This document shows positions 4,389 to 54,845 of a stretch of DNA of 64,000 bases, one piece after another; position 1 is the first letter of the stretch, and each line of letters begins with the position of its first letter. The position numbers and the translations under genes were made by a program. The stretch is from a virus: the IMG/VR virus record IMGVR_UViG_3300029214_000148. One strand, 5' to 3'. Below the pieces are notes generated by a model. It had not been told where the DNA came from and made no database searches. It saw only the letters and a list, made by a program, of their open reading frames with translations.

Positions 4389-4407
4389 AAAAGAGAGGAA
4401 AAAGAAT

Positions 4408-4842
4408 ATGCAGAACATTAAAATCAAATATTTTACAGACAAAATCGAGAAGTTAAAATACGTCGATGGGACGTCCGACTGGATCGACATGCGTGCATCC
4501 GAAGAAGTGACGCTTCATGCCGGAGAGTTCGCTTTGATCCCGCTTGGTGTAGCCATGGAACTGCCGAAAGGCTATGAAGCACATCTGGTACCACGCAGTT
4601 CCACCTTTAAAAACTGGGGAATCATCCAAACAAACAGTATCGGTGTAATCGATGGTTCCTATTGCGGCGATAATGACATGTGGTGCATGCCGGTCTATGC
4701 GACAAGGGACACTGTAATCCATATCAATGACCGCATTGCGCAATTTCGTATCGTGGAGAATCAGCCGAAAATTGCTTTCGAGCAGGTGGAACATTTAATA
4801 GGAAAAGACCGCGGAGGATTTGGAAGCACGGGCATAAATTAA
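4408..4842 (+). CDS. dut: dUTP diphosphatase
   Basis: Internal ATG after AGAGAGGAAAAAGAAT. dUTPase motifs Gx[27 protein letters not shown]. Confidence 0.85.
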
Positions 4843-5088: not shown

Positions 5089-5131
5089 ATTTCACATTAA
5101 TATTGTAAACATTTAGTTCATTGAAAGGAGA
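5089..5131 (+). promoter_or_regulatory. family-2 promoter/leader (TTTCACATTAATATTGTAAAC ... TGAAAGGAG) upstream of sigma factor gene
   Basis: same motif as the cassette island at 16.9-20.6 kb. Confidence 0.4.
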
Positions 5132-5138
5132 AAAGATT

Positions 5139-13717: not shown

Positions 13718-14134
13718 ATGGTATCGAGAAAAACCCAGAAAGATGTTGGAAAATTTAAGGCAAAACTTGCCGGACCATTTACTGCCCGGCAGACGGTATT
13801 TATCGGAATGGGTGCAGCAGTAGATATCCTTGTATGTTCCGCCATGCATGGAGCAGGCTTTGACATCAATGTGATCGCGGCTGTATGCATCTGCATAATT
13901 GCACCATTTGTTTTATTTGGCACCGTCAACCCTTACGGAATGACATGCGAAAAATTCCTGTACCAGTTTTACATCTATCATGTTGTTGCACCATCTGTGA
14001 GGAAATACTGCACGCATACCGCTTTAGACGATATTAACACAGAAATTTCCCCGGAAGACAAGAAAAAGATGGAAATCAAAAAGAAAAAGATGAGTAAACA
14101 TACAGAAATAAAAGGATACCATTCTTTTGAATAA
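13718..14134 (+). CDS. PrgI/VirB3-like small T4SS membrane protein
   Basis: 138 aa, two helices, immediately upstream of VirB4 as in Firmicutes T4SS. Confidence 0.45.
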   Translation: MVSRKTQKDVGKFKAKLAGPFTARQTVFIGMGAAVDILVCSAMHGAGFDINVIAAVCICIIAPFVLFGTVNPYGMTCEKFLYQFYIYHVVAPSVRKYCTHTALDDINTEISPEDKKKMEIKKKKMSKHTEIKGYHSFE

Positions 14135-14302: not shown

Positions 14303-16705
14303 ATGACAGATAAGAAAAAAATAGAATCAACAAAACATCCCACCAAAATACCAAAAGATGTGCTCACCACCATTCCTTTTACAAGAGTGTACGATGACAC
14401 AAATACAGATGGTGGTATCATTGAAATTTCCAATGGATTGTACTCAAAATCCTATTATCTTGATGACACAAGTTTCTCTGACCTCGGAGATGAGGAACAG
14501 GACGATATCTTAAAATCATTCGAAAGGATCCTGAATACATTTAACCACCTGTATTCATATGAAATTACGGTCAACATTCGTAATATCGACAAAAGCAAAT
14601 TTAATGAAACGATCCTTATGCAGTATAAGAAAGATGAACTGGATGACCTGCGTGCGGAGCATAACGAGATCATTCTGGATAAGATGCAGGAAGGTAAAAA
14701 CAATTTAAAGGCGGAGAAGTATATTACCATTTCCGTAGAAGGAGAAAACATCAAAGATGCGCTTGAATTATTCGCTTCCATCGAGAAAGAAATCAATGTG
14801 AAATTCAAACACATTAACAATACCGGCATGCGTGCAATTTCACTGAAGGACCGGATGAAAATTCTCCATAACATCTACAACCTCGAGAACGAAGATTCCT
14901 TTAATCAGGATTTTAACCCGCGTTCCTTACAGAAACAGGGTATGAGCATAAAAACAGCGATTGCACCAATGTCCTTTGACTTCAAATCCAAAAACATGGA
15001 TTTCTTCAAGATTGGCGGCATTTACGGACGTTCCATGATTCTCCGCTCTATTCCTGCTAATATCAGCGGAAACCTGATCGAGACACTTTCCTCCGTATCC
15101 ACCAATATGCTTCTTTCCGTCCATTATGATGCACAGGAGCAGGAGAAAGCAGTCGCGTTTGCCTCTCATCAGGTAACTTCTGTCGGCGGTGATGTTATCA
15201 AACAGCAGACATCCCTTTCCAGAAGTGGTGCATCCCCGGACATGATTTCCCCGAAACTGCGTACTGCCCAGCTGGATGCGCAGGAAATGTTGGATGACCT
15301 GACAAACCGCAACCAGAAACTTTTCAAGGTTACCGTTGTTGCAACCGTGTTTGCAACCAATGAGAAAGACCTTGATATGTTCACGGAACAGATCAAGACA
15401 AAAGCAAAGGAAAATGTGTGTTCCATAGGTATCTTATATACCACGCAGGAACAGGGTTTTAACAGTTCCCTCCCACTGGCTAAAAACTATCTGGATGACA
15501 CCTATCTGGTAATGACCAGCGAGACAGCTTCTGCCGTCCAGCCATTTTCAACGGTCGAACTGCAGTCCAAGGGCGGTTTTTATTACGGACTGAACACCTT
15601 GTCCAAAAACCTTATTATTTACAACCGTTCCATTGGAATCAACCAGAATGGTTTTATCCTCGGTTCCCCTGGTACTGGTAAGTCATTCACTGCAAAAATA
15701 GAAATGTATCAGACTTATCTTAATACGGACAATACACAGATCTTTGTCCTTGATCCAGAGCAGGAGTACACGGTGCTTGCCAACCGTCTCGGCGGACAGG
15801 TATTCTCTATTGAACCGGGTGGCACAACTCACTTAAACCCACTCGATCTCGACATCACAAAAGATTCCGATGGCGATCCTCTCGCCCAGAAAGTAGACTA
15901 TATCATCTGTATCATTGAGCGTATGCTTGGTGGTAAATCGGAGCTTTCCGGATACGCAAAATCTTTCATTGATGCAACGTTACAGGATTTATACCGTCCG
16001 TATATCGCAGATCTGGAAAGCAGGGGGGTTACGATTGATACAGATACCTGTCCGACATTAAAAGATCTGTACGATATGCTCAGTAAGCACAAGAAACCGG
16101 AAGCCAGAAACCTTGCGGCGTCCATCCGTACATATTGTGATGGTACACTGGATCTGTTCGCACACCACACAAACATTGATGTAAACGCCAAAATGGTAAC
16201 CTATGATACCAGCCATATCGGTACCAACTTAAAGGAATTGGGAATGCAGATCTGTCTGAACGATATCTGGAACCGTATGATTGCAAACAAGAAAAAAAAG
16301 ATTCGTACCTATTTCTACATTGATGAGGCTCATTTATTCCTGCGTATGCCATCGTCCGCAGAATATATCGCAATGGTATGGAAACGTGCAAGGAAATGGA
16401 TGGGGACCCCTACCTTTATTACCCAGAACGTAGAAGATATGTTACGGTCCGCAGAAGGAAACACAATTCTTTCTACATCCGATTTCGCCGTTATGCTGTC
16501 TCAGTCACCGCTTGACCGTGCAGCATTATCAGAATTGTTTCATATCAGCCCGGAACAGCAGGAATTCTTTACGCATACCGGTTGCGGTGAGGGACTTATT
16601 TATACAGCAAAAGCAATCGTGCCATTTGAAAACCATTTCCCGGAAAACACAGAACTGTACAAGATTCTGTCCACAAAGCCGGCAGATGCAGAAGCACTTG
16701 CTTAA
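14303..16705 (+). CDS. VirB4-family conjugative transfer ATPase (PrgJ/TcpF-like)
   Basis: 800 aa; Walker A GSPGTGKSF; Walker B YFYIDEAHLFL; size and N-terminal region typical of VirB4/CagE. Confidence 0.85.
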   Translation: MTDKKKIESTKHPTKIPKDVLTTIPFTRVYDDTNTDGGIIEISNGLYSKSYYLDDTSFSDLGDEEQDDILKSFERILNTFNHLYSYEITVNIRNIDKSKFNETILMQYKKDELDDLRAEHNEIILDKMQEGKNNLKAEKYITISVEGENIKDALELFASIEKEINVKFKHINNTGMRAISLKDRMKILHNIYNLENEDSFNQDFNPRSLQKQGMSIKTAIAPMSFDFKSKNMDFFKIGGIYGRSMILRSIPANISGNLIETLSSVSTNMLLSVHYDAQEQEKAVAFASHQVTSVGGDVIKQQTSLSRSGASPDMISPKLRTAQLDAQEMLDDLTNRNQKLFKVTVVATVFATNEKDLDMFTEQIKTKAKENVCSIGILYTTQEQGFNSSLPLAKNYLDDTYLVMTSETASAVQPFSTVELQSKGGFYYGLNTLSKNLIIYNRSIGINQNGFILGSPGTGKSFTAKIEMYQTYLNTDNTQIFVLDPEQEYTVLANRLGGQVFSIEPGGTTHLNPLDLDITKDSDGDPLAQKVDYIICIIERMLGGKSELSGYAKSFIDATLQDLYRPYIADLESRGVTIDTDTCPTLKDLYDMLSKHKKPEARNLAASIRTYCDGTLDLFAHHTNIDVNAKMVTYDTSHIGTNLKELGMQICLNDIWNRMIANKKKKIRTYFYIDEAHLFLRMPSSAEYIAMVWKRARKWMGTPTFITQNVEDMLRSAEGNTILSTSDFAVMLSQSPLDRAALSELFHISPEQQEFFTHTGCGEGLIYTAKAIVPFENHFPENTELYKILSTKPADAEALA

Positions 16706-33136: not shown

Positions 33137-33139
33137 GTA

Positions 33140-33290
33140 TAGTGTAAAGGTCATAAACCGAGCTGCCAGGGTTACCGGCTGGCAGAAAATCCTTTCGAAA
33201 AATGTTTACGTTCCGGGAAATCCCCGGAAAGGATAGTGGGTACGCAGCGCAAGTTATTCCGGGTTCGACTCCCGGATATCCTTTTTCAAA
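33140..33290 (+). ncRNA. conserved structured leader RNA, copy B
   Basis: same architecture as 21262..21420; T-arm-like CCGGGTTCGACTCCCGG. Confidence 0.45.
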
Positions 33291-33319: not shown

Positions 33320-33625
33320 ATGGATGAACTGATCAAGAAACTTCGGATGTATGCAGACACATACAAAAAAGAACCAGCCGGACGGGAAGTTGAAGGTACC
33401 GTGGAATTGCTCGAAAATTCTGCAGATGCTTTGCAGGAAGCAGGGGAGGCTGTTCAAAAATTAAAGCAGAGATTTGTGGATGGAATAGATGTCCATTACC
33501 AGGGACATGATGCCGACGATTACATTGAGTGTCCTTTCTGCGGATACGAGGTTGCAGCGATCGACGATTACTGTGAGCTGCGCCCAAATCATTGTCCGAA
33601 ATGTGGAACAAAGCTGATATACTAG
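33320..33625 (+). CDS. zinc-ribbon protein
   Basis: 101 aa; CPFCG...CPKCG; RBS GGAGGAAAAGAGA. Confidence 0.5.
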   Translation: MDELIKKLRMYADTYKKEPAGREVEGTVELLENSADALQEAGEAVQKLKQRFVDGIDVHYQGHDADDYIECPFCGYEVAAIDDYCELRPNHCPKCGTKLIY

Positions 33626-34457: not shown

Positions 34458-34509
34458 GAAAGAAGCCGGGGAATCCCGACTTTTCTGCTGCATTGTGTGT
34501 ATATTTTAA

Positions 34510-34582
34510 CGCCGCCTGCGGGATTCGAACCCGCGGATAAAGAGTTCAAAGCTCCCTGCGTTAACCTTTTCGCCAAGGCGGA
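34510..34582 (-). tRNA. tRNA-Gln (anticodon TTG)
   Basis: Manual fold. T-arm GCGGG-TTCGAAT-CCCGC; anticodon loop CTTTGAA; D-arm GCGA/ACGC. Position 1:72 is a U-C mismatch. No encoded CCA. Confidence 0.55.
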
Positions 34583-34583
34583 G

Positions 34584-34651
34584 CACACCCGGAAGGACTC
34601 GAACCCTCGTTACCGGTTTTGGAGACCAGTTTCTGTCCATCAGACAGGTGC
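34584..34651 (-). tRNA. tRNA-Trp-like (anticodon CCA) with truncated D-arm
   Basis: Anticodon stem-loop CTGGT-CTCCAAA-ACCGG and T-arm fold well; only 68 nt; D-arm TCTG-ATGGA-CAGA is abnormally short. Confidence 0.35.
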
Positions 34652-34655
34652 ATAA

Positions 34656-34726
34656 CAGGCGATAATGGAATCGAACCATTGTTTTCTGAGTCAGAATCAG
34701 ATGTCTTACCATTGAACGAATCGCCC
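34656..34726 (-). tRNA. tRNA-Gln (anticodon CTG)
   Basis: Anticodon stem TCTGA/TCAGA perfect; loop TTCTGAC; 4-nt variable loop; acceptor GGGCGAT/ATCGCCT. Confidence 0.55.
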
Positions 34727-34728
34727 AG

Positions 34729-34802
34729 TATCCCCAAAGGGACTCGAACCCTTAACCGACAGATTAGAAATCTGTTGCTCTTTCCAATTGAGCTATGGGG
34801 GT
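34729..34802 (-). tRNA. tRNA-Arg (anticodon TCT)
   Basis: Anticodon stem ACAGA/TCTGT; loop TTTCTAA; D-arm GCTC-AATTGGAAA-GAGC; one acceptor mismatch. Confidence 0.6.
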
Positions 34803-34808
34803 ATATAG

Positions 34809-34898
34809 CGCAGACACCGGGGATCGAACCCGGACAGCGGGTGTGCCGCATGCCACATTAGCAGTGTGGAGGGGTACCATTTACCTTTATATGTCTGC
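34809..34898 (-). tRNA. tRNA-Ser (anticodon GCT), class II
   Basis: Anticodon stem CCACA-CTGCTAA-TGTGG; long variable arm GCGG-CACA-CCGC; acceptor GCAGACA/TGTCTGC. Confidence 0.6.
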
Positions 34899-34903
34899 AT
34901 AAG

Positions 34904-34975
34904 AGGCATCGGAGGGGATCGAACCCTCGCCTTCCGGGTTGCAGCCGGACGCCTTCGCCGTTTGGCTACGATGCC
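34904..34975 (-). tRNA. tRNA-Cys (anticodon GCA)
   Basis: Acceptor GGCATCG/CGATGCC perfect; anticodon stem TCCGG/CCGGA; loop CTGCAAC. Confidence 0.65.
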
Positions 34976-35005
34976 ATATAATTCTTCCCGATAAGAGAAG
35001 ATGAG

Positions 35006-35089
35006 CGCTGTGGCAGGGAGTCGAACCCTGATATCCTTTCGGAATGACGGTTTTCAGGACCGTTGCTTTACCAGTTGAGCCACCACAGC
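35006..35089 (-). tRNA. tRNA-Ser-like (anticodon TGA), class II, with C at position 33
   Basis: Acceptor GCTGTGG/CCACAGC; anticodon stem ACGGT/ACCGT; loop CCTGAAA; variable arm TCC-GAAA-GGA. Confidence 0.5.
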
Positions 35090-35197
35090 AAAAATAAAAG
35101 CATACACCTCTCAATCGAAAGATGTATGCTTTGTAATTCCAGGTATTTCCAATATTCTCCCGGAAATTTTCCTACAATGACCACATTTCTTTCAATT

Positions 35198-35278
35198 TGA
35201 GACAATATTTATTTGCACGACAACTACGCCAGATACATGACTGCGACTGACTCATACTTGCCTGTGAATATTGTCTCA
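35198..35278. repeat. 12-bp inverted repeat pair (TGAGACAATATT ... AATATTGTCTCA) separated by 57 bp, inside the tRNA cluster gap
   Basis: read directly; lies between the two tRNA sub-clusters. Confidence 0.5.
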
Positions 35279-35334
35279 TTACTGCTGTAATCATTGATTT
35301 TCCCTTCCTTTCCTTGGTTTTCTTGAATATTTAG

Positions 35335-35408
35335 TGTGTCTGGTGGGACTTGAACCCGACGACCCCACGATTAAAAGTCGCGTGCTCTGCCAACTGAGCT
35401 ACAGACAC
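35335..35408 (-). tRNA. tRNA-Lys (anticodon TTT)
   Basis: Acceptor GTGTCTG/CAGACAC perfect; D-arm GCTC-AGTTGGCA-GAGC; anticodon loop CTTTTAA; weak T-stem. Confidence 0.6.
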
Positions 35409-35413
35409 ATAAG

Positions 35414-35485
35414 CGGATCAGGAGGGAATCGAACCCTCATCTTCCGGTAGACAGCCGGATGTACTAGCCGCTATACTACAGATCC
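35414..35485 (-). tRNA. tRNA-Asp (anticodon GTC) with U at position 37
   Basis: Anticodon stem TCCGG/CCGGA; loop CTGTCTA; D-arm GTAT-AGCGGCTA-GTAC. Confidence 0.55.
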
Positions 35486-35489
35486 ATAA

Positions 35490-35562
35490 AGCTCCCGTCC
35501 GGCTTCGAACCGGAAACCTTCTGATTACAAGTCAGATGCACTACCAGTTGTGCTACAGGAGC
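35490..35562 (-). tRNA. tRNA-Thr (anticodon TGT)
   Basis: Acceptor GCTCCTG/CGGGAGC; D-arm GCAC-AACTGGTA-GTGC; anticodon stem TCTGA/TCAGA. Confidence 0.65.
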
Positions 35563-35646
35563 AGGAACACTTCCGACGGGTGCTGCCCCGCTATCTCCGC
35601 CGTGACAGGGCGGTGACTCTGTTGTTTGTCCTCGGAAGTAAATAAG

Positions 35647-35728
35647 TGCGCCGGGGAGGACTCGAACCTCCGGTGTTTCTTTGTGGCTGATTTACAGTCA
35701 GCTGCTGTCGCCTCTGAGCCACCGACGC
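35647..35728 (-). tRNA. tRNA-Tyr (anticodon GTA), class II
   Basis: Acceptor GCGTCGG/CCGGCGC; anticodon stem GCTGA-CTGTAAA-TCAGC; long variable arm. Confidence 0.6.
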
Positions 35729-35733
35729 ATAAG

Positions 35734-35806
35734 CTGGTCCGGAGGGTCTCGAACCCTCAACGCCCCGGTTAACAGCCGGGTGCTCTACCATTGAGCTACG
35801 GATCAG
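35734..35806 (-). tRNA. tRNA-Asn (anticodon GTT)
   Basis: Anticodon stem CCCGG/CCGGG; loop CTGTTAA; D-arm GCTC-AATGGTA-GAGC. Confidence 0.6.
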
Positions 35807-35878
35807 AGCATGTGACGGGTCTCGAACCCGCCCGTCCTGCTTGGAAGGCAGGTGTGCCGCCAACAACACTTCACATGC
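35807..35878 (-). tRNA. tRNA-Gly (anticodon TCC)
   Basis: Acceptor GCATGTG/CACATGC perfect; anticodon stem CCTGC/GCAGG; loop CTTCCAA; A at position 8. Confidence 0.6.
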
Positions 35879-36431
35879 ATGCGGATAAAAGAAGTGCCTG
35901 TTTTCTCTTATCCATTCAGTTTTTTACCGCATCGCTGCGGAGTGGACAGGAGTGGTAACGATCCACCCTGTAAGGATTTTCAGTCCTTCGCTAATCCATC
36001 TCAGCTACCTGTCCATGGCTTTTTCTGCAATAAAAAAGCCGCATCAAGAAATTTCCTCTTCTCTCTGCGGTCATCTGCGTTTTGCAATATTTCGGTTTTA
36101 AGTGCCTGGTTTAAAATCGAAATCGACCGCGGGAAGGTGTATCATAATAGTTCTGTCCCCATGTTTTCCCGGATTTTGAGCATGAGAAACTAAACATATT
36201 GCTGAAATCGCCGTATGTTCTACAATCATTATTAAAATTTTTACTACTCATCATCTTTAACATGGTTTTCTTTTCCTTTCATTTTAATTAATGCTGGATA
36301 AACAAAAAGCCCGTCACTTAACTCAAAGCTACACATCCAAATAGCTCTGAGTTAAAAGACAGGCACTTCTTTTATCTCATGCACCTATCATATCATACTG
36401 ATCGTGAAGTGTCAACAGGAAATTTAAAAAA

Positions 36432-36500
36432 GGTTATTTTTGGTTATTTTGGTTATTTTTCAAAATAAAACAAAATAAAACAAAATAAAACAAATAAAAA
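36432..36500. repeat. tandem repeats GGTTATTTT x3 and CAAAATAAAA x4
   Basis: read directly, in the 3-prime flank of the minus-strand gene. Confidence 0.6.
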
Positions 36501-37622: not shown

Positions 37623-37728
37623 TTGCATTCCAGTGGAATGCATGGGGTGAAAGAAATAGGCAAATCGCATGACAATTTCTGAAATTAAATTGTTGCGCTC
37701 CCGTGGAGGGGGGCGTATGGATTGAAAT
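37622..37728 (+). CRISPR. small array, 2 degenerate repeats + 1 spacer, in the 3-prime UTR
   Basis: GTTGCATTCCAGTGGAATGCATGGGGTGAAAG / 38-nt spacer / GTTGCGCTCCCGTGGAGGGGGGCGTATGGATTGAAAT. Confidence 0.55.
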
Positions 37729-38135: not shown

Positions 38136-38162
38136 TTGACGATTTTTTAAATGGCGCAATAT
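38136..38162 (+). promoter_or_regulatory. family-1 conserved promoter
   Basis: TTGACGATTTTTTAAATGGCGCAATAT. Confidence 0.55.
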
Positions 38163-38335
38163 GTATCATGTAAAGGTCATAAACCGAGCTGCCAGGGTTA
38201 TCGGCTGGCAGAAATCTTTTCGATATTTGTTTACACTCCGGGGAAACCCGGAAGGGGTAGTGAGGACGCAGCGTGTGCTGTTTCCGGGTTCGATTCCCGG
38301 GTATCCCTTTTGACTGCCACATACGGTCTTCTCAA
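38163..38335 (+). ncRNA. conserved structured leader RNA, copy C
   Basis: same core as copies A and B; T-arm-like CCGGGTTCGATTCCCGGG; followed by about 250 nt of extra leader before the gene. Confidence 0.45.
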
Positions 38336-38589
38336 AATTCAGCCGTCTGCGGCCTGTGGAACTTTCCACTGGACCAAAATAACGATAACCGCCAGAATAA
38401 CAGCAGCGTGCGTTGGCGTGAGAACTATCGGCGCACAGGGATTACTCCTTTCATATTTATCTATCAAACCTTTCCGTACATCGTATGGAAAGGTTATGGG
38501 ACAGCAGGTGCATAGACATGAACTATTCCGGGATCGTTTCCCGGATGTTCCATTTTTAAAACATTAAAACAAATCATAGGAGGGAATTG

Positions 38590-39315
38590 ATGATGGAGAA
38601 AGAAGTAGTATATGTTGCAGAACTGGATTCCGATGTTGATGATGTCGTTGCGGCACATTACTTATTTAACGAGGGTGTGTTAAAGTGTGTAGTATGCGAT
38701 CCATATCCAAGAACACCGGAGGGGTTGGCACGAAAGGGAAAGCTGGAAGCGCTTGGCATCGATGTGGTTAAGAAAATGCCACCGGTTGCAAAATATGTGT
38801 TTGTTGGCGGCGCTCTTACGGCTGTTGCTGGCTATATCCGGATGCACCATGTCGACTGGCTGGTAATGAACGGAGGCTTTGTTGGAGCAAATATTGCGAC
38901 CTTTGAACTGGATAAGTTCAAGGGGAAGAACACTGTCCGTACCTTCAATTTCAACTGCGATGTTGTGGCTGCAGATACGGTTTTGAAAACTGATGAGAAG
39001 CATATTTCTCATATTGTTCTTGTCGGAAAAAACGTCTGCCATGACGTCCGAAATACGAAAAATGGTCTCTGGAGTGGCGAGAAATACAAGAAATTGTTCG
39101 ATGAGTACCGGGTTAAGGATGAGAAGCGTCAACACGACTTGCTTGCCTGCCATGAGGGGCTTGCATTTCTGCGGGGAACCAATGCGATCTGTGAGTATGA
39201 GATGGTAAGACCATACAACACAGGCTTGAATGGCAAGCTGACGCAGTGGGGTAGCACAAAAACCATGGAAACACCATATCGCGAAGTGCTTGCTGCTGTT
39301 GGCTACCAGAATTAA
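38590..39315 (+). CDS. hypothetical protein, possible nucleoside-hydrolase-like fold
   Basis: N-terminal VYVAELDSDVDDVVAA loosely resembles the aspartate-cluster motif of nucleoside hydrolases; strong RBS AGGAGGG. Confidence 0.35.
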   Translation: MMEKEVVYVAELDSDVDDVVAAHYLFNEGVLKCVVCDPYPRTPEGLARKGKLEALGIDVVKKMPPVAKYVFVGGALTAVAGYIRMHHVDWLVMNGGFVGANIATFELDKFKGKNTVRTFNFNCDVVAADTVLKTDEKHISHIVLVGKNVCHDVRNTKNGLWSGEKYKKLFDEYRVKDEKRQHDLLACHEGLAFLRGTNAICEYEMVRPYNTGLNGKLTQWGSTKTMETPYREVLAAVGYQN

Positions 39316-39317
39316 AA

Positions 39318-39422
39318 GCTGCATCATGTGCGGGGGTGTATGGATTGAAATGTCGGAGTATGGTGTAAGAATCATATATATTCCTACGTTGTGCTCCTCC
39401 CGGTTGGTGCATGGGTTGAAAT
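39318..39422 (+). CRISPR. small array, 2 degenerate repeats + 1 spacer, in the 3-prime UTR
   Basis: GCTGCATCATGTGCGGGGGTGTATGGATTGAAAT / 36-nt spacer / GTTGTGCTCCTCCCGGTTGGTGCATGGGTTGAAAT. Confidence 0.5.
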
Positions 39423-41013: not shown

Positions 41014-41232
41014 GTTGCGCCCCATTGGGTGCATGGGTTGAAATCTTTATGACCTTCTGAAAAGTGAGGGCATCTTAGTTGCACCCCCGCAAGGGATGTA
41101 TGGGTTGAAATTCAATAGAAACAGATGCATTCGAAGGCGTTACAAGTTGCACCCCGCGAGGGGTGTATGGGTTGAAATTGCAGAAAGCTCAGGATTGGAA
41201 GGTTGCATCCTATGGGATGCATGGATTGAAAC
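41014..41232 (+). CRISPR. small array, 4 degenerate repeats + 3 spacers
   Basis: repeats at 41014, 41078, 41146, 41202; spacer 2 (TCAATAGAAACAGATGCATTCGAAGGCGTTACAA) matches spacer 2 at 24044 with 2 mismatches. Confidence 0.7.
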
Positions 41233-41271
41233 GAACATATTTGTTATTATTTATTATTGAGATCAGAAAGG

Positions 41272-41718: not shown

Positions 41719-42393
41719 ATGGAAAAAGAAAAAATGGGAGTGAAACTAAAAGTCTGGGGAGATTACGCATTGTTCACCAGACCAGAACTGAAAACTGAAC
41801 GGTATACATACGATGTGATGACACCGTCGGCGGCTAGAGGAATTCTGGAATCTATCTACTGGCATCCGGGACTTCGGTGGTATGTAGACAAGATTCATGT
41901 ATTAAATCCGATTGCCACTACGAGCGTGAGAAGAAATGAACTTCTCAGTAAGATACCAAAGTCAAATATGCTGCAGGCATACAACGGCGGGGATGTGAAA
42001 CTGTATAACTCGTCAAGAGACGATATTATCCAGAGGGCATCTGTTATTCTCCGGGATGTCTGCTATGTGATTGAGGCGCATTTTGAAATGACAGGGAAAG
42101 CGAGCCCAACAGACAGCCCGGCAAAGTTTATAAGTATCTTTAACAACAGGGCAAGAAAAGGGGCATGTTATTCGATGCCGTATTTTGGTGTAAGGGAATT
42201 CCCGGCACACTTTGAACTCTGCGAAGGAGATGAAAAGATCCCATCCTACTATGAAGGACTTTCGGATAAGGATCTCGGGCTGATGCTTTATGATCTGGAT
42301 TACTCCTGCGGTAGAGATATCCAGCCAATGTATTATCATGCGATTATGAAAAACGGCGTTATTGACGTTGGGAACAGTGAGGTGCTTCGATGA
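41719..42393 (+). CDS. cas5: Cas5c (Cas5d), type I-C
   Basis: KLKVWGDYALFTRPELKTERYTYDVMTPSAARGILESIYWHP matches the Cas5d N-terminal signature. Confidence 0.85.
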   Translation: MEKEKMGVKLKVWGDYALFTRPELKTERYTYDVMTPSAARGILESIYWHPGLRWYVDKIHVLNPIATTSVRRNELLSKIPKSNMLQAYNGGDVKLYNSSRDDIIQRASVILRDVCYVIEAHFEMTGKASPTDSPAKFISIFNNRARKGACYSMPYFGVREFPAHFELCEGDEKIPSYYEGLSDKDLGLMLYDLDYSCGRDIQPMYYHAIMKNGVIDVGNSEVLR

Positions 42394-44129
42394 TCTTTCA
42401 GTCACTTGTGAAATTATATGAAACACTTGCGGATCAGGGAAAAGTGTCCCGTCCTGGCTGGTGTAATGCAAAGGTATCCTATGCGGTGGTTTTAAACCAT
42501 GATGGGACGATTAAAGATATTGTTTCCGTGAAACAGAAAGTGAAGAGAGGAAAGAAGACTGTTGAAATTCCAATAATTATGCAGGTTCCAGAGATGGTCA
42601 CCCGCGCTAACAACATTGCCTCCAGCTTTCTCTGCGAAAATGCAAAGTATCTCTTTGGAATTGACGAAAAGATGAGTTTGCGTACACTGGAATGTTTTAA
42701 GGCGGCAAAGAAAAAACATCTTGATATTCTTGATGTTGTGGATTCACCTGTAGCACAGACGGTATGTAACTTTTTCCGTTCATGGGATCCGGAACAGGCG
42801 TTGGATCAACCGGCTGTTGCAAAACTTGCAGAAGAGTTTTATAAAGGCGGAAACCTCGTTTTTGAAGTAGATGGGGAATATGTGCATGATGATGAAGAAG
42901 TCCGCAGGGCATGGATGGATTACAGCAGTGTACCATATGAAATGGTAACTGGAAGATGCCTTATTACTGGAGAGGAAGCGGAGATTGCCCGCACGCACGG
43001 GAAAATCAAAGGAGTTCCGGGAGCACAGTCATCTGGCGCGTCGCTTGTATCATTTAACGGAGCATCCCTTGAGTCTTATGAAAAAACACAGAGCTACAAC
43101 GCGCCGATTAGCACCTATGCGGCGTATGCATATGTGACCGCGCTGAATTACTTGCTTTCTACGGACGGGTATCACAGCAAGGTAGGAGATTCCATGGTGG
43201 TTTTCTGGACAGATTCCGGGGATGTGGATGATGTGAGCAGACTGCGGAAGATGATGGGAAATATCAATGAAAAGGATCACACCCTTACAGATACGGATGA
43301 AAAACTGTACGTCCTCTGCCTTGCACCAAATGCCGGGCGAATTGCAGTCCGGTTCTTCTATGAGGATGCGATCGGGGCAATCTGGGAAAACCTGTCCGAA
43401 CATGCCAGCCGGATGAAGATTGTAAAACCAGTATTTGAGGATCAAGAATTTATCAATATCTGGCAGATGCTCATGGAGACAGTCAACCAGAATCTTACAG
43501 ATAAAACACCTGTCCCGCATATGTCAGCAATGACGTTACAGTCAGTCATTTCGGATACACCGTATCCGCAGAGTCTGTATGCAGGTGTGTTATCTCGTAT
43601 CCGCGCGGAGCACAAAGGTGTTACTTACAGAAAAGCATCGATTATTAAAGCTTTTTTAATAAAGAACTACAAATGGGAGGAAGGAAAAAATATGGAAGCA
43701 TTAAATGAAGGCTGTAAGGATCGGGCATATATCCTTGGAAGACTGTTTGCGGTTATGGAAAAGGCACAGAAAGAAGCAGTTGGCAATATCAACCAGACAA
43801 TTTGTGATAAGTTTTACAATTCCGCGTGCACAACACCAAGATCGATCTTTCCAGTACTGATCAGGCTATCTAACAGTCATTTAAGTAAGTTGAAACGGAC
43901 AAAACCGGGGAGAGGATATTATTTTACAGCTAAAATGCAGGATTTAATGGATAAAATTCCGGTAACAGATGATGATCCGGGATTTCCGCGGCGTTTCTCA
44001 TATGAGGATCAGGGTAAGTTTGCACTTGGTTATTATCATCAGATGCGGGCGGAATATACAAGCAGTAAGTTAAAAGATAATGATTCAGAAGGTGATCAGA
44101 CAAATGCAGAGAATATGGAGGAAAACTAA
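42390..44129 (+). CDS. cas8c: Cas8c (Csd1), type I-C large subunit
   Basis: 579 aa between cas5c and cas7c; N-terminus MIFQSLVKLYETL typical of Csd1. Confidence 0.7.
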   Translation: MIFQSLVKLYETLADQGKVSRPGWCNAKVSYAVVLNHDGTIKDIVSVKQKVKRGKKTVEIPIIMQVPEMVTRANNIASSFLCENAKYLFGIDEKMSLRTLECFKAAKKKHLDILDVVDSPVAQTVCNFFRSWDPEQALDQPAVAKLAEEFYKGGNLVFEVDGEYVHDDEEVRRAWMDYSSVPYEMVTGRCLITGEEAEIARTHGKIKGVPGAQSSGASLVSFNGASLESYEKTQSYNAPISTYAAYAYVTALNYLLSTDGYHSKVGDSMVVFWTDSGDVDDVSRLRKMMGNINEKDHTLTDTDEKLYVLCLAPNAGRIAVRFFYEDAIGAIWENLSEHASRMKIVKPVFEDQEFINIWQMLMETVNQNLTDKTPVPHMSAMTLQSVISDTPYPQSLYAGVLSRIRAEHKGVTYRKASIIKAFLIKNYKWEEGKNMEALNEGCKDRAYILGRLFAVMEKAQKEAVGNINQTICDKFYNSACTTPRSIFPVLIRLSNSHLSKLKRTKPGRGYYFTAKMQDLMDKIPVTDDDPGFPRRFSYEDQGKFALGYYHQMRAEYTSSKLKDNDSEGDQTNAENMEEN

Positions 44130-44130
44130 G

Positions 44131-45042
44131 ATGAGCACACCAATTAAGAACAGATATGATTTCGTAGTATTATTCGACGTAGAGAATGGAAATCCGAACG
44201 GTGATCCGGATGCCGGAAATATGCCGAGAGTTGATCCAGAGACTGGCATCGGGCTTGTGACAGATGCCTGCATAAAGCGCAAGATCCGTAACTATGTGGA
44301 AACTGTAAAAGAAGATGCAGCCGGGTTCAAGATCTATATTAAAGAGGGGGTCCCGCTGAACCGGAGTGACCTTAAGGCAGTCGAAAGTCTTGGTATTGAC
44401 GTCGGTGACGACAAAAATGCACTTGAAGATGTAAAGAAGCTGAAAAAGACAGATGAAGATGTGGATCTTAAGCTCCGTGACTATATGTGTAGTAATTTCT
44501 ATGATATCCGTACATTTGGTGCTGTCTTGACTACCTTTACAAAGGCGGCATTAAACTGTGGGCAGGTACGTGGCCCGGTACAGATTGGTTTTGCAAAAAG
44601 TATTGATCCTGTTTTCAGCCAGGATATTACTGTAACCAGAGTTGCAATCACAACGGAAAAGGATGCGGAAAAGAAAAATACAGAAATGGGAAGAAAGAGT
44701 ATTATTCCTTATGGACTTTACCGTGTGGAGGGATATATTTCTGCTAATCTTGCCCGTAAGACCACCGGCTTTTCTGAAGACGATCTGGAACTGCTTTGGG
44801 AAGCAATCATTAACATGTTTGAGAATGACCATTCCGCAGCACGCGGGAAGATGGCAGTGCGTGAGCTCATCGTATTCAAGCATAACAGCGAGCTTGGCAA
44901 TTGTCCATCGTACAAACTGTTTGAAACTGTTGATGTTAAGAAGAATGATGGTGTTGAGTTTCCTCGTAAATATTCCGATTATGCAGTGACTATTCATGAG
45001 GATGCGATTCCGGATGGCGTGACAATGACTCGCAAAATCTAA
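44131..45042 (+). CDS. cas7: Cas7c (Csd2), type I-C
   Basis: VLFDVENGNPNGDPDAGNMPRVDPETGIGLVTDACIKRKIRNY is the Csd2 signature; start ATG after TGGAGGAAAACTAAG. Confidence 0.85.
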   Translation: MSTPIKNRYDFVVLFDVENGNPNGDPDAGNMPRVDPETGIGLVTDACIKRKIRNYVETVKEDAAGFKIYIKEGVPLNRSDLKAVESLGIDVGDDKNALEDVKKLKKTDEDVDLKLRDYMCSNFYDIRTFGAVLTTFTKAALNCGQVRGPVQIGFAKSIDPVFSQDITVTRVAITTEKDAEKKNTEMGRKSIIPYGLYRVEGYISANLARKTTGFSEDDLELLWEAIINMFENDHSAARGKMAVRELIVFKHNSELGNCPSYKLFETVDVKKNDGVEFPRKYSDYAVTIHEDAIPDGVTMTRKI

Positions 45043-45292
45043 AAAGATTTCCAGAGATTACAAGGCAACCCGCGTTTTGCGGGCTGCATCTGCTTGGGTT
45101 ATGCCGAAATGTAGAATTCCGGTGCGAACTGAAAGCTTACATAGCTTCTCTAGGAGACTCGCACCGGAAATGGAGGTATTAGTGTACAAATAGAACACAA
45201 AACCCAACTGTATAAGGCCGTTTGAGAACAATTAATTAGAGGAATTGTTTATATTTTGGCGATCGGGAGAGTTGTTTCTGTTCACTTTTACA

Positions 45293-46069
45293 GCTACGCC
45301 CCATGGAGGGCGTATGGATTGAAAATTGTATAGCCATCCCTGACAGCTTCCTCATTAGACGCTACGCCCCATGGAGGGCGTATGGATTGAAAATCTATAC
45401 TCTATTATGTGATGTACTAATGTCGCTGCTACGCCCCATGGAGGGCGTATGGATTGAAAATGATTGTTATTGGTTTTTATTCATGGAGAGGAAAGCTACG
45501 CCCCATGGAGGGGCGTATGGATTGAAAAGTAAGGTTTCGTCTCGAAGCCTTTATTCTGTTTTGCTGCGCCCCATGGAGGGGCGTATGGATTGAAATACCA
45601 AAATCTTTTGACATTCTTATAAATGGTAACAGCTACGTCTTATGGGGTACGTATGGATTGAAATCATAATAATTGTAGAGATCTCAATACAAAATAAAGC
45701 TGCGTCTCATGGAATACGTATGGATTGAAATGAAAAGGCGAGTTTGCGAAAGCAGATATTGGAATGTTGCGTCTCGTGGAGTACGTATGGATTGAAATTC
45801 CAACTTTAACTACATAACTATCCTGATAAACTTGCTGCACCCCATGGATAGTGTATGGATTGAAATTTAAAAAATCATGGATAACATCTGCGATAAGACG
45901 TTGCACCTCGCTAGGGGTGTATGGGTTGAAATTTCCATAATCGGTAGCCAATTATTATCATTAGGTGTTGCACCCCATAGAGGGTGTATGGATTGAAATT
46001 ATATAAAAATGATGAATATGTAAAAAAAATAAAAGAGTTACGCTCCATGGAGTGCGTATGGCTTGAAAC
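45293..46069 (+). CRISPR. type I-C-like array, 12 repeats in three repeat subfamilies, 11 spacers
   Basis: Repeats every 66-70 nt. Subfamily 1: GCTACGCCCCATGGAGGGCGTATGGATTGAAAAT (R1-R5). Subfamily 2: GCTGCGTCTCATGGAATACGTATGGATTGAAAT (R6-R8). Subfamily 3: GTTGCACCCCATAGAGGGTGTATGGATTGAAAT (R9-R11). R12 is degenerate. 3-prime handle GTATGGATTGAAAT conserved throughout. Confidence 0.8.
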
Positions 46070-52773: not shown

Positions 52774-52788
52774 TTTCTTGCGGAGCAG

Positions 52789-52861
52789 AGCAGAGGAAGG
52801 CTCACCGGGCTCATGACCTGGGTGTCGGATGTTCGATTCCTTTCTCCGCAATTAATTTTAA
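52789..52861 (+). tRNA. tRNA (anticodon CAT; Met or Ile2) on the plus strand
   Basis: Acceptor TGCGGAG/CTCCGCA perfect; D-arm GAGC/GCTC; anticodon stem CCGGG/CCTGG; loop CTCATGA; weak T-stem GGATG/CCTTT; C at position 8. Confidence 0.5.
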
Positions 52862-52965
52862 AAAAGGGAGGTTATAACATGTTCTAACTGATTAGAAAAC
52901 ATAAACAAGCATTCGTTCAAAAGAAAGATTCGTATGTGAAAAAAGGATGGGAGGAAAAGAAAATC

Positions 52966-53916
52966 ATGGGAATGGATGTAAACATGCTTGCCTGCGTGCG
53001 GGCACTTGCAGAAAACAGAATACAGGATGCGAAGAAATACGCGGTCTGCTGTTGTGCCAATGACAATACGAAGAAAAATGAGAGCCAGGTCAGAAGATAC
53101 AAAAATCTTCTGCTCAACGGTCCAAACATGATCGAGCTGCCAGCAAATCTTAACGGGCTCCTACGTATGGAAGATGTGTCCAGCTTTCATGCCGAGCGGT
53201 ACTACCTTGGGAAAACCCAGTGGGATCTTTTTGAAAAGATTAAACGTGGTGTGGCGGTCACGCTTAAATTAATGGAGTATGGGATTCCCTACAAAAACAG
53301 CACCCTCATATACGGCGTGCCCGGCACTGGGAAAACGGAGTTTGCCAGATATGTGGCGTATTCCCTGGGTATTCCTTATGCATATATTAATTTTTCCTTC
53401 CTGATCGACTCATTCATGGGGAATACATCGAAGAATATCCAGCGTGTGTTTGATTTCTGCAAAGGGCAGAAATGTGTCCTGATGCTTGATGAGATCGACT
53501 GTATCGGATTAAAGCGCGGCATAGGAGGAAATGGGGGACCAGATGGGGAAATATCAAGAACGACCATTTCTCTTATGCAGGCATTGGACGATCTGACAGA
53601 CGGGCAGATCATCATTGCTGCCACGAACCGGTACGACCTGCTTGATCCCGCTTTGTCCAGACGGTTCCAAAACCATGTGGAATTCTGTCCATTCAATTTT
53701 GAAGAAAACAGGGAGATGATGGAAAAATTCCTGGCGGCAGTGGACGAGTCTTTGCTGAGTGCTATGGAAATTGTAACGTATGCAAGAGAAAACCATACGC
53801 AGGCAGAGGTAACCGGGCATCTCATTGAAGTACTGACGCGCAAGGTATCGCAGGAAGTGGATGTGGAAGCGGCGCTGGAAGCACTAAAAAGTGGGAATGA
53901 AAGAACAGATAACTAG
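52966..53916 (+). CDS. AAA+ ATPase
   Basis: Walker A GVPGTGKTEFA; Walker B VLMLDEID; sensor/arginine finger region; ATG after GGGAGG. Confidence 0.7.
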   Translation: MGMDVNMLACVRALAENRIQDAKKYAVCCCANDNTKKNESQVRRYKNLLLNGPNMIELPANLNGLLRMEDVSSFHAERYYLGKTQWDLFEKIKRGVAVTLKLMEYGIPYKNSTLIYGVPGTGKTEFARYVAYSLGIPYAYINFSFLIDSFMGNTSKNIQRVFDFCKGQKCVLMLDEIDCIGLKRGIGGNGGPDGEISRTTISLMQALDDLTDGQIIIAATNRYDLLDPALSRRFQNHVEFCPFNFEENREMMEKFLAAVDESLLSAMEIVTYARENHTQAEVTGHLIEVLTRKVSQEVDVEAALEALKSGNERTDN

Positions 53917-54366: not shown

Positions 54367-54533
54367 GTGGGATGTTTTACCCGACTGACGGAAACGAATA
54401 CGAGATCAATATTCCATCTCCAGTGATACATGACTCTAAAGAAGAAGCTATGGCTGATGGAAACTTTGGTTACCGCTTTATACAGATAGATAGATCGGTT
54501 GGACCGGTAATCGTTATATTTGAAAGTCAATAA
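54363..54533 (+). CDS. small hypothetical protein, ATGA-coupled
   Basis: 56 aa; start overlaps the upstream stop. Confidence 0.3.
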   Translation: MSGMFYPTDGNEYEINIPSPVIHDSKEEAMADGNFGYRFIQIDRSVGPVIVIFESQ

Positions 54534-54845
54534 CCCATCACTAAAGTGACGGGCTTGTGTTTCAGCCACTACACAGTGGATATGCAGGCCCGATATTGAC
54601 TAGCCTAAGTGCTTCGGGCACTACGTTAAGAGAGAATACATAGTTACCTGCGGATGTAATGCCTAGTCTGCAGCAATAAGGGGACGTATTAAACAGTTTC
54701 ATTGGGGTGGAACAGTGTGCGGCAGATAAAGATGTACCTTTATCTCTTATCCATATAAACCTCTCTTAACATTGGCGAAGGCATTTTAACCACACTTCGG
54801 TGTGAGTACTTAAATCCGAAAGGATTTCAGAAAGGAGCATGACCT
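54534..54845 (+). ncRNA. putative IscB omega RNA (OMEGA guide RNA scaffold)
   Basis: 312-nt GC-rich noncoding tract directly abutting the iscB start, with multiple hairpins; position matches the known upstream omega-RNA arrangement of IscB loci. Confidence 0.5.

Follow-up and report, generated by a model that had tools for sequence, protein, structure and literature searches.

A two-module tRNA gene array on a widespread mobile element of the human gut

The tRNA array

A stretch of 64,000 nucleotides of DNA (IMG/VR record IMGVR_UViG_3300029214_000148; hereafter the window) belongs to a large mobile element of the human gut and carries a dense array of transfer RNA (tRNA) genes on its minus strand. 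ARAGORN called 13 tRNA genes in this array, at 34509-36014, and the Rfam model RF00005 found the same 13 genes above its curated threshold. A first-pass annotation, made from the sequence without database searches, had described a dense minus-strand cluster of 13 tRNAs, and the two programs confirmed it. Twelve of the genes and anticodons listed there were called by both programs; the remaining one, Ser(GCU), is borderline. It was matched at 34809-34894 with 28.3 bits under permissive RF00005 settings, and ARAGORN called it only when relaxed (ps80). ARAGORN thus called 12 of the 13 listed genes and, in addition, a tRNA-Phe(GAA) gene that had been overlooked. Since this gene lies at 35943-36014, the array spans 34510-36014 and does not end at 35878. 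The presence of 13 tRNAs in 1.5 kb of a 64-kb window is far beyond chance.

The gathering score of RF00005, 29 bits, was used as the membership cut-off for bacterial elongator tRNA genes. Thirteen of the 14 array genes score at least 29 bits; the Ser(GCU)-like gene falls short and is best called tRNA-like. Seven genes score 58-67 bits and five 47.6-55 bits, with Trp at 33.1 and Ser(GCU) at 28.3 bits. Twelve genes are therefore solid, Trp is marginal and Ser(GCU) is slightly below the threshold. For calibration, five chromosomal Lachnospiraceae tRNAs scored 59-63 bits with the same model. The spread of scores in other mobile-element arrays is like that of the window array.

Within blocks the genes are separated by 0-6 nt, and longer spacers of 64, 84, 30 and 245 nt also occur. 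The earlier description of the genes as packed almost end to end therefore holds inside the blocks but not over the whole array, which has 14 genes in 1.5 kb (about 9 per kb). The 245-nt spacer separates two modules. Module 1 consists of Phe, Gly(UCC), Asn, Tyr, Thr(UGU), Asp and Lys(UUU), and module 2 of Ser(UGA), Cys, Ser(GCU)-like, Arg(UCU), Gln(CUG), Trp-like and Gln(UUG) (Table 1). CCA is encoded by none of the 14 genes, as had been annotated. Since all five chromosomal Lachnospiraceae tRNAs also lack CCA, with CU-rich trailers resembling those of the array, the CCA-less genes are no oddity.

Each gene was parsed into its arms, and the parse was verified against the sequence. The six oddities listed in the annotation were all present: the U1.C72 mismatch of Gln(UUG), the D arm of Trp, C33 of Ser(UGA), U37 of Asp, A8 of Gly and the T stem of Lys. 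Of the 14 genes, 12 have an anticodon loop of 7 nt in which position 33 is U and position 37 a purine, the exceptions being Ser(UGA), with C33, and Asp, with U37. The discriminator base fits the anticodon in all 14 genes (A in Phe, Tyr, Lys and Arg; U in Gly, Thr and Cys; G in Asn, Asp, Trp, both Ser and both Gln). The discriminator identity rules and the canonical loops used in this comparison are those established for bacteria, not those of the host's own tRNAs. In the other arrays compared, all Leu tRNAs have A73 and all Ser tRNAs have G73, after hand correction of one ARAGORN mis-parse in a 15-kb faecal scaffold labelled 'Bacteriophage sp.' (MT835946.1; hereafter L105), which served as the outgroup for the array.

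The two weakest genes both have a mini D arm. In the Trp-like gene, the D stem has 3 bp and the D loop 5 nt; in the Ser(GCU)-like gene, the arm reads GGUA-AAUGG-UACC and the linker between positions 8 and 9 has 6 nt. Chromosomal tRNAs were recovered only for Trp, Cys, Pro and Gly, too few to set host and array loops side by side. In the chromosomal Lachnospiraceae Trp tRNAs the D arm is normal, and the anticodon loop matches that of the array Trp.

Table 1. Coordinates of the array, its leaders and the protein-coding landmarks of the window
Feature	Position	Strand	Remarks
Predicted promoter	36387-36415	-	TTGACA, 17-nt spacer, TATGAT, upstream TG (extended -10)
5' leader hairpin, inverted repeat	36297-36376	-	leader 1 fold z-score -5.4
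Small ORF1, 50 amino acids, MLKMMSSKNFNNDCRTYGDFSNMFSFSCSKSGKTWGQNYYDTPSRGRFRF	36111-36263	-	between promoter and tRNA-Phe, upstream of module 1
Hairpin CCGCA...UGCGG with U run	36029-36070	-	between ORF1 and tRNA-Phe; weaker
tRNA-Phe(GAA)	35943-36014	-	47.6 bits; A73; odd T loop AUCGUUA (A54/U58)
tRNA-Gly(UCC)	35807-35878	-	49.0 bits; U73; A8; lineage B copy identical
tRNA-Asn(GUU)	35734-35805	-	62.1 bits; G73; A3.C70 mismatch
tRNA-Tyr(GUA)	35647-35728	-	54.8 bits; A73; unpaired 14-nt variable region CACAAAGAAACACC
tRNA-Thr(UGU)	35490-35562	-	66.8 bits; fully canonical; UAAUCA at positions 36-41
tRNA-Asp(GUC)	35414-35485	-	62.3 bits; G73; U37 (loop CUGUCUA); U6.U67 mismatch
tRNA-Lys(UUU)	35335-35408	-	59.3 bits; A73; canonical loop; T stem 3 bp, or 5 bp with bulged C
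Small ORF2, 40 amino acids, MITAVMRQYSQASMSQSQSCIWRSCRANKYCLKLKEMWSL	35172-35294	-	upstream of module 2, after GGAAGGG Shine-Dalgarno-like site
16-bp hairpin with UAUUUUU	35090-35132	-	abuts tRNA-Ser(UGA); splits array into two modules
tRNA-Ser(UGA), class II	35006-35089	-	53.1 bits; G73; C33 (loop CCUGAAA)
tRNA-Cys(GCA)	34904-34975	-	67 bits; U73; canonical; all 4 lineage-B differences in loops
Ser(GCU)-like, class II	34809-34898	-	28.3 bits; G73; perfect 7-bp acceptor stem, 4-bp variable stem
tRNA-Arg(UCU)	34729-34802	-	66.5 bits; A73; C2.A71 mismatch; absent from lineage B
tRNA-Gln(CUG)	34656-34726	-	58.3 bits; G73; G1.U72; absent from lineage B
Trp(CCA)-like, 68 nt	34584-34651	-	33.1 bits; G73; G1.U72; 6-bp anticodon stem
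tRNA-Gln(UUG)	34510-34582	-	55.1 bits; G73; U1.C72; absent from lineage B
Terminator-like hairpin at array end	34463-34482	-	
Topoisomerase III	6289-8760		
PrgI family	13718-14134		1.2e-15; directly upstream of VirB4-like ATPase
VirB4/TraG P-loop ATPase	14303-16705		3.4e-15
PcfJ-like protein	57587-59413		

Conservation between lineages

A sister lineage (lineage B) was recovered by means of the gene for a 206-amino-acid protein that neighbours the array. Its array is 88% identical overall to that of the window lineage. It contains the same first seven tRNAs, followed by a class II tRNA, Cys, a Ser(GCU)-like gene and Trp, and is without Arg(UCU) and both Gln genes. A further contig (L100) contains only module 1, that is, the first seven tRNAs. 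The predicted promoter matches the consensus at 11 of 12 positions, and its site is conserved in lineages A and B. Just upstream of this promoter, at 36461-36500, lies an A/T-rich tandem 10-nt repeat, CAAAATAAAA on the plus strand. The copy number of the repeat differs among near-identical contigs, and lineage B is without it.

The 11 tRNAs shared with lineage B (831 nt) showed 51 differences (6.1%), and the spacers differed at 12.4%. Among 17 changed stem pairs, seven are compensatory double changes (Tyr 5-68, 11-24 and 12-23; Lys 4-69; class II tRNA 7-66 and 27-43; Trp 28-42) and two are one-sided changes in which the pair is kept through G.U. The per-site rate predicts about 0.6 chance double hits, against the seven observed. 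The two weakest genes vary between the lineages solely in loops or by compensation: all three differences of the Ser(GCU)-like gene lie in loops, and the lineage-B Trp gene has A1-U72 besides the compensated pair 28-42. Since two and a half sequence lineages were compared, the covariation rests on few events. Together with the fitting discriminator bases, the predicted promoter and the terminator-like hairpin at the array end, these data are strong evidence for a functional RNA operon that is under selection and presumably expressed.

Several of the oddities are shared by both lineages, namely U37 of Asp, A8 of Gly, the bulged T stem of Lys and the A54/U58 T loop of Phe, which is retained in lineage B as AUCAUUA. 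In both, too, Trp and Ser(GCU) have mini D arms. The L105 homologue of the Lys gene has a regular T stem. Other mismatches are confined to the window lineage or to some of its members. The A3.C70 mismatch of Asn is limited to the window lineage, with A3-U70 in lineage B, and the C2.A71 mismatch of Arg is a minority polymorphism found in three of 11 near-identical contigs, the other eight having U2-A71.

The Ser(UGA) slot behaves differently. In the mini-array of L105, the orthologous Ser(UGA) gene has the canonical loop CUUGAAA. Relative to this loop, the change is U33C in the window lineage and G35A in lineage B; in a third variant (L119), the loss of one nucleotide has shortened the loop to 6 nt. 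The lineage-B gene therefore combines the anticodon UAA with a G73 Ser-type body, and scores 38.7 bits with two stem mismatches. An acceptor mismatch, U5.C68, was found in five of 11 contigs of the window lineage. These facts suggest that the Ser(UGA) slot is probably losing or changing its decoding function. Because the loop lesions differ in the three lineages, C33 is most simply read as a lesion rather than an adaptation. With the canonical homologue in L105 and the U5.C68 mismatch also taken into account, C33 was rejected as an adaptive escape change at the array locus. We also considered whether the lineage-B tRNA with the UAA anticodon could be a deliberate mistranslator, inserting Ser for Leu at UUA and UUG. 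This is unlikely, and a pseudogene is more likely, because of the low score, the two stem mismatches and the 6-nt loop in the sister variant.

The sister-lineage Ser-type (G73) class II tRNAs lie at 12005-12089 of contig L098 (UAA anticodon) and at about 2575-2660 of L119 (6-nt loop). C33 recurs elsewhere, in the Cys and Tyr-like tRNAs of L105 (MT835946.1, 7170-7767) and in Gln(CUG) and Leu(UAA) of the conjugative megaplasmid pMP7017. A54/U58 T loops occur in the Phe gene of the window and in a Lys gene of pMP7017, which are unrelated gut mobile-element arrays. Tyr tRNAs with a UGCAA T loop in L105 and in the viral contig L108 (IMG/VR UViG 3300029705_000399) escape ARAGORN.

The array might instead be a non-functional relic, a set of tRNAs once acquired from a phage or an earlier host and now in decay, with the oddities as pseudogene lesions. 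The Ser(UGA) slot, with its independent loop lesions and stem-breaking polymorphism, would agree with such decay, as would the lineage-specific mismatches in Asn and Arg, the low scores of Trp (33 bits) and Ser(GCU) (28 bits), and the loss of three members in lineage B and of module 2 in L100. However, decay does not account for the seven compensatory stem changes or for the lower divergence of the tRNAs than of their spacers. The discriminator bases are all appropriate, and the weakest two members vary just in loops or through compensatory changes. In addition, the array has a strong predicted promoter to itself and is kept across very many samples. We therefore regard a relic as very improbable.

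Codon usage of the element

In our preferred interpretation, to which we give about an even chance, the array is a maintained auxiliary tRNA operon in two modules that supplies tRNAs for codons of the element. The host sigma-A RNA polymerase would initiate at the near-consensus promoter (36415-36387). RNase P and RNase Z of the host would free the CCA-less tRNAs, and the CCA-adding enzyme would complete them. Since the discriminator bases and the anticodons agree, the host synthetases would be expected to charge them. The extra tRNAs would raise the supply for codons that are more frequent in the element than in Lachnospiraceae chromosomes (AAA, ACA, UCA, CAA, UAY, AAY, UGG and UGY), and expression of the element would then depend less on the tRNA pool of whichever host it has entered. 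Most of the oddities would be tolerated drift in a redundant set of tRNAs belonging to the lineage of the element, with the Ser(UGA) slot decaying. Supply of codons is also how the authors of the pMP7017 study read its transcribed array of 20 tRNAs (PMC10832533).

Codon usage was compared between 40 long open reading frames (ORFs) of the window and the long ORFs of Lachnospiraceae chromosomal loci, which served as proxies for the host. The array reads 41% of the codons of the element, against 33-35% in the Lachnospiraceae loci (Mann-Whitney p=0.0006 against Roseburia loci and p=0.0011 against all Lachnospiraceae loci). AAA, ACA, UCA, CAA, UAC, AAC, UGU and UGG are among the codons most enriched in the element, and in the Arg, Thr, Gly and Lys families the top codon of the element is read by an array tRNA.

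Several facts weigh against this interpretation. No enrichment was seen relative to two low-GC loci from Agathobacter metagenome-assembled genomes (MAGs) (p=0.95). The array has no tRNAs for GAA, AUU/AUC (AUH), CCA and Leu codons, which are heavily used by or enriched in the element, so that a pure matching of demand is incomplete. Drift is a poor explanation for U37, A8, A54/U58 and the mini D arms, which are conserved. Moreover, while the genes, the folds and the selection on them, the predicted promoter and hairpins, the identity match and the codon bias are observed, we infer the transcription, the processing, the charging and the benefit. The codon match is real but incomplete, and it is host-dependent. 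The codon bias nevertheless favours a matching of supply to the element, which we rank first, ahead of the possibility, discussed below, that the supplied tRNAs counter a defence.

Leader ORFs and hairpins

Each module is preceded by a small ORF and a hairpin with a U run (Table 1). The tRNAs of module 1 read 24 of the 49 codons (49%) that follow the start codon of ORF1. Among 312 small ORFs of the window the mean share was 0.245 (standard deviation 0.084), and the observed share was reached by 0.3% of them. Similarly, the tRNAs of module 2 read 16 of 39 codons (41%) of ORF2, these being codons for Ser (UCA), Cys, Ser (AGY), Arg (AGA), Gln and Trp. The mean for the 312 small ORFs was 0.154 (standard deviation 0.062), and none of them reached the observed share. 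The share of module-1 codons in ORF2 is only 0.18. Against nulls of the ORFs' own composition, the p values were 6.5e-4 for ORF1 and 1.4e-4 for ORF2. In both ORFs the enrichment is specific to the frame, the other frames of ORF1 giving 0.17 and 0.29.

ORF1 differs between lineages A and B by one synonymous change, and no part of the locus is more conserved than the region of ORF1 and leader 1. In ORF2 of lineage B, 19 of 38 codons differ, 15 of them non-synonymously, while the share of module-2 codons stays at 0.42 (four lost and four gained). ORF2 is also retained in the third variant L119, with a different end.

Both leaders fold better than shuffled controls (z-score -5.4 for leader 1 and -6.6 for leader 2). 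In the hairpin that precedes module 2, the changes found in lineage B, A-U to G-C and A-U to G.U, preserve the stem. The 5' arm of the leader 1 hairpin (36356-36376) is 95% complementary to the spacer between Phe and Gly (35884-35904). The calculated duplex energy is -32.6 kcal/mol with this distal spacer and -25.8 kcal/mol with the local partner. The duplex with the Phe-Gly spacer is thus a possible alternative pairing or processing stem.

These features raise the possibility that each module has a leader ORF that samples the codons of its tRNAs, and that slow translation of this ORF, when those tRNAs are scarce, raises the output of the module through leader read-through, processing or stability. 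The shortfall could arise from a codon mismatch in a new host or from attack by a tRNA-cleaving nuclease (tRNase). Such sensing is compatible both with the supply of codons and with the countering of a defence. We put it forward tentatively, as less probable than our preferred interpretation. The enrichment is module-specific and frame-specific in both ORFs, and it survives in lineage B although 19 of 38 codons have changed; ORF2 is kept in L119 as well. In each module a hairpin and a U run stand between the ORF and the first tRNA, directly ahead of the latter; both leaders have strong secondary structure, and leader 1 is more conserved than the rest of the locus. In addition, ribosome-mediated transcription attenuation has been described in Firmicutes (PMC4191407).

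However, constrained folding with a ribosome footprint moved along each ORF revealed no classical antiterminator in either leader. The pairing probability of the terminator under these masks was at least 0.96 in leader 2 and 0.75-0.99 in leader 1. Since the hairpins are stable at all masked positions of the ribosome, an antiterminator of the trp type is unsupported, and the ORFs, if regulatory, must act kinetically or through processing or stability. There are further difficulties. ORF2 of lineage B keeps its Gln and Arg codons though the matching tRNAs are absent, no analogous ORFs were seen in L105, L108 or pMP7017, and ORF1 and ORF2 may be genuine genes for small proteins. The pattern was recognised only after the fact, though ORF2 provided a second test after ORF1.

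The leaders resemble the trpL, pheL and hisL attenuators (PMC1183508) in having a short ORF with a ribosome-binding site, regulatory codons, and a hairpin with a U run. They differ in that the downstream genes are tRNAs, in that the codons sample seven isoacceptors with no run for a single amino acid, and in that folding gives no antiterminator alternative. We therefore did not assign them to the leader-peptide attenuator family, since an ORF, whose translation is predicted, and a terminator are present but an antiterminator is not. We found no precedent in the literature for a leader ORF upstream of tRNA genes.

Anticodon nucleases and counter-defence

The first-pass annotation had drawn a parallel between the array and those of large phages, in which changes in the anticodon loops allow escape from anticodon nucleases. 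The main substrates of such nucleases, however, have canonical loops in the array: CUUUUAA in Lys, CUGUAAA in Tyr, CUGUUAA in Asn and CUUGUAA in Thr. Escape by loop mutation is therefore unsupported for these tRNAs. The loops of Gly, Phe, Trp and Ser(GCU) are also standard.

The best-defined comparison is with the AriB nuclease of PARIS, which cuts at U36-A-A-U-C/A41 and also reads U16; resistant Lys tRNA of phage T5 carries U39A, A41C and U16C (PMC12409363). The array Thr has the exact E. coli AriB site UAAUCA, and the array Lys has UAAUCG with U16 and U17. By the criteria of E. coli AriB, Thr and Lys of the array are thus in sensitive states and not in the escape states of T5, although the relevant nucleases of Lachnospiraceae may differ. 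With regard to the two loop exceptions, U33C has no effect on cleavage by gamma-toxin, while changes at position 37 abolish it (PMC2275089). U37 of Asp could therefore be the sole conserved loop change that fits escape.

The annotation had also pointed to an enrichment for nuclease substrates, but this has little discriminating power, since the published tRNase targets span nearly all isotypes. The array contains the known defence-tRNase targets Lys(UUU), Thr(UGU), Asn(GUU) and Tyr(GUA), which is a weak discriminator, and has neither His nor Glu, two classical targets. What stands of the original claim is that a mobile element with type IV secretion genes carries real tRNAs, several of them odd; the reading of these as escape variants is not supported for the main substrates.

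The array may still have a defence-related role in another form, because over-supply of a tRNA can defeat a tRNase (PMC11555353). The array may replenish tRNAs that tRNases of the host or of rival elements deplete on entry, candidates being nucleases of the PARIS, PrrC, retron/Septu, VapC or HEPN type. Resistance would come from dosage, from differences in the tRNA bodies or from both, and not mainly from mutations of the anticodon loop. Module 1 holds Lys(UUU), Thr(UGU) and Asn(GUU), three targets of PARIS AriB, and the T5 variants of these three tRNAs suffice to block PARIS (PMC12409363). Its Tyr is the target of PtuAB of retron-Eco7, which T5 counters by over-expression of tRNA-Tyr from a strong promoter (PMC11555353), and the predicted promoter of the array is near consensus. 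The tRNA bodies differ from chromosomal ones, for example in the D arm of Trp, and related tRNAs occur in faecal and IMG/VR phage-like arrays, that is, in a pool of mobile elements. Departures from universally conserved tRNA positions recur in mobile-element arrays that are not related: C33 was found in four of 88 ARAGORN-called tRNAs and in one uncalled Tyr-like gene, and A54/U58 T loops are found in both the window array and pMP7017. U37 of Asp is conserved at a position that at least one anticodon nuclease uses as a determinant (PMC2275089).

Against this stand the canonical loops of Lys, Tyr, Asn and Thr, the retention of UAAUCA in Thr and of UAAUCG with U16 in Lys, and the lack of an effect of U33C on gamma-toxin cleavage. 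The C33 of the window sits on a decaying slot, and a search of the window and of 10 kb on each flank turned up neither a tRNA-repair gene nor a recognisable tRNase. We put replenishment against tRNases forward tentatively as well, as less probable than the supply of codons.

The carrier element and its host

The annotation had placed the array on a conjugative element. The window does encode Gram-positive type IV secretion genes (PrgI and VirB4; Table 1), but no relaxase or coupling protein was found in the 64-kb window or in 10 kb on each side of it, in an element of at least 200-350 kb. The term conjugative is therefore plausible but not established, and the element may be a plasmid, an integrative and conjugative element (ICE) or a phage-plasmid. 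The window also encodes a ParA/VirC1-like protein and DNA methylases. In the window and in contigs L109 and L111, nearly all genes lie on one strand over more than 80 kb, with a steady positive GC skew. The exceptions to this layout are the tRNA array and the 206-amino-acid gene; most genes have no Pfam or PHROG match.

A flotillin-like protein encoded 1.6 kb from the array was found, residue for residue, in 1918 blocks of a public assembly index. The contigs bearing it come from the human gut and are 200-352 kb long, and the same 13 ARAGORN-called tRNAs were present in all 10 of the contigs examined. The nearest chromosomal homologues of the flotillin are from Lachnospiraceae, with 70% identity in an Agathobacter MAG and about 50-55% in Roseburia and others. 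These homologues suggest that the host is probably a species of Lachnospiraceae, a placement at the family level only.

No relative of the element was found in PLSDB or INPHARED, and similarity to the array in these collections was limited to generic tRNA matches, except for the 15-kb faecal scaffold. Scans of IMG/VR with exact patterns for the Trp-like tRNA and leader 1 gave no match. Relatives of the Tyr, Ser(UGA) and Lys genes occur in phage-like arrays from faeces and from IMG/VR, and the motif of the Tyr variable region, CACAAAGAAACACC, also occurs in Tyr tRNAs of such arrays. These relatives suggest that the array tRNAs come from a shared pool of mobile elements rather than being recent copies from the host. 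L108 was retrieved through the Tyr motif; in this contig, a GOLLD RNA at 4127-4571 (196.9 bits) adjoins an array of 24 tRNAs.

The 206-amino-acid gene upstream of the array had no match in Pfam, PHROG or PADLOC. The AlphaFold model of its product (predicted local distance difference test score 74.6) had no fold match in PDB at E<0.05. More distant homologues of this gene are not adjacent to tRNAs. In two contigs with such homologues (L092 and L097), no tRNA genes lie within 10 kb. These contigs carry a CCA-adding-enzyme-like gene (HD and tRNA_NucTran2_2 domains), a bacterial RNase A-like gene and a SocA/Panacea-domain gene.

Comparison with known tRNA arrays

The closest parallel is pMP7017, a conjugative megaplasmid of Bifidobacterium breve with a transcribed array of 20 tRNAs (PMC10832533); ARAGORN called 18. 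Like the present element, it comes from the human gut, measures some 200 kb or more and has conjugation genes and CRISPR-Cas, and both carry dense, same-strand, redundant tRNAs diverged from those of the host. The isotypes in common are Gly(UCC), Gln(CUG), Gln(UUG), Cys, Ser(GCU), Ser(UGA), Arg(UCU), Phe, Lys(UUU) and Tyr. Non-canonical members, including C33 and the A54/U58 T loop, occur in both, and the Tyr genes are 90% identical over 69 nt. The two elements share no backbone DNA, however, and pMP7017 belongs to Actinomycetota whereas the present element is probably from Lachnospiraceae. pMP7017 alone has a transfer-messenger RNA and a manA motif, and it is without leader ORFs matched to modules. 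Expression is proven for pMP7017 and predicted for the window array.

Dense and redundant tRNA clusters have also been described on Mycobacterium plasmids and phages and on Acidithiobacillus ICEs, where the D, anticodon and variable arms differ from those of the chromosomal copies (PMC5966550, PMC12803027, PMC4758250). For arrays on plasmids, a part in countering defences has been proposed before (PMC12803027). The Mycobacterium and Acidithiobacillus units have 20-40 tRNAs for nearly all amino acids, whereas the window array has 14 tRNAs for 12 amino acids, lies in another phylum and has no embedded HNH gene. A tRNA array unit has been defined as at least 20 tRNA genes at two or more per kb (Tran et al. 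2016, PMC4758250). The window array exceeds this density (about 9 per kb) but falls short in the number of genes (14). The annotation had held that an array on a conjugative element would be notable; this novelty is weakened by the published arrays of pMP7017, mycobacterial plasmids and Acidithiobacillus ICEs.

The tRNA regions of T5-type phages neutralise PARIS, retron-Eco7 and PrrC (PMC11464382, PMC12409363, PMC11555353). The window array resembles them in containing Lys(UUU), Thr(UGU), Asn(GUU) and Tyr(GUA), in its predicted strong promoter and in the small ORFs interspersed among the tRNAs. It differs in that T5 Lys has U39A, A41C and U16C, whereas Lys and Thr of the window keep the sensitive motif. 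The carrier is also different, being a conjugation-type element rather than a lytic phage.

Other features of the window

Two paralogous structured leaders of about 150 nt lie on the plus strand on either side of the array, at 33139-33290 and 38162-38315, and are 91% identical over their first 92 nt. A partial third copy is found at 38526-38555 and a homologue on the minus strand of L098 (12365-12545). In lineage B, a copy abuts the tRNA array. Each follows a conserved promoter box and closes with an 8-bp stem around a tRNA-like T arm (CCGGG-UUCGAYU-CCCGG), after which comes a U run. They precede a zinc-ribbon ORF (33320-33625) and a nucleoside-hydrolase-like ORF (38587-39315). A search of Rfam with these leaders gave nothing at E values up to 5. 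They may be riboswitches, attenuators or tRNA-like RNAs.

A box, TTGACGATTTTTCAAAAGGCGCAATAT, occurs seven times upstream of plus-strand genes (30312, 33100, 37225, 38126, 41327, 41589 and 45598). The element encodes a sigma-70-family factor (5121-5849), and the tRNA array has instead a promoter of the housekeeping type, TTGACA/TATGAT.

Type I-C Cascade genes (cas5d, cas8c/csd1 and cas7) lie at 41719-45042, and cas3, cas1, cas2 and cas4 were not found in the window. CRISPR arrays with degenerate repeats were found at 45284-46000 and 41014-41244. Solitary CRISPR repeats at 37695-37727, 39318-39350 and 39392-39422 lie directly downstream of ordinary ORFs, and are possibly Cas5d processing sites or RNA anti-CRISPR-like units. 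A HEARO (omega) RNA on the plus strand (54526-54790, 115.6 bits) is followed by an IscB-type RRXRR/HNH protein of 418 amino acids (54846-56102), which together form a known RNA-guided nuclease module of the IS200/605 family. ARAGORN also called an isolated, weak Met(CAU) tRNA-like gene on the plus strand (52778-52852, 35.4 bits), which has G37 and a poor T arm. An IetA-like AAA ATPase (52936-53916, PADLOC 2.7e-51) is encoded a short distance downstream of it.

Significance

Dense, redundant and aberrant tRNA clusters on large elements are already known from pMP7017, mycobacterial plasmids and Acidithiobacillus ICEs. What is new is a very prevalent, undescribed element with a probable Lachnospiraceae host, the layout of its array in two modules, and a matched small ORF for each module. 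Few large mobile elements in human-gut metagenomes are as widespread as this one, yet it has no match in the reference collections of plasmids and phages. Plasmid-borne tRNA arrays are hereby extended to gut Clostridia.

Should the leader ORFs not act as sensors, the array simply joins a class that is already known, and the idea of nuclease escape should be dropped for most of its tRNAs. If they do, they would represent a new way to regulate tRNA genes, and the codon content of each leader would state which shortage the element guards against. In either case, the array is a natural system for asking whether such tRNAs serve codon supply, breadth of host range or evasion of defence. Sensing by the leaders, if true, would offer a handle on the 50-year-old question of why mobile elements carry tRNAs.

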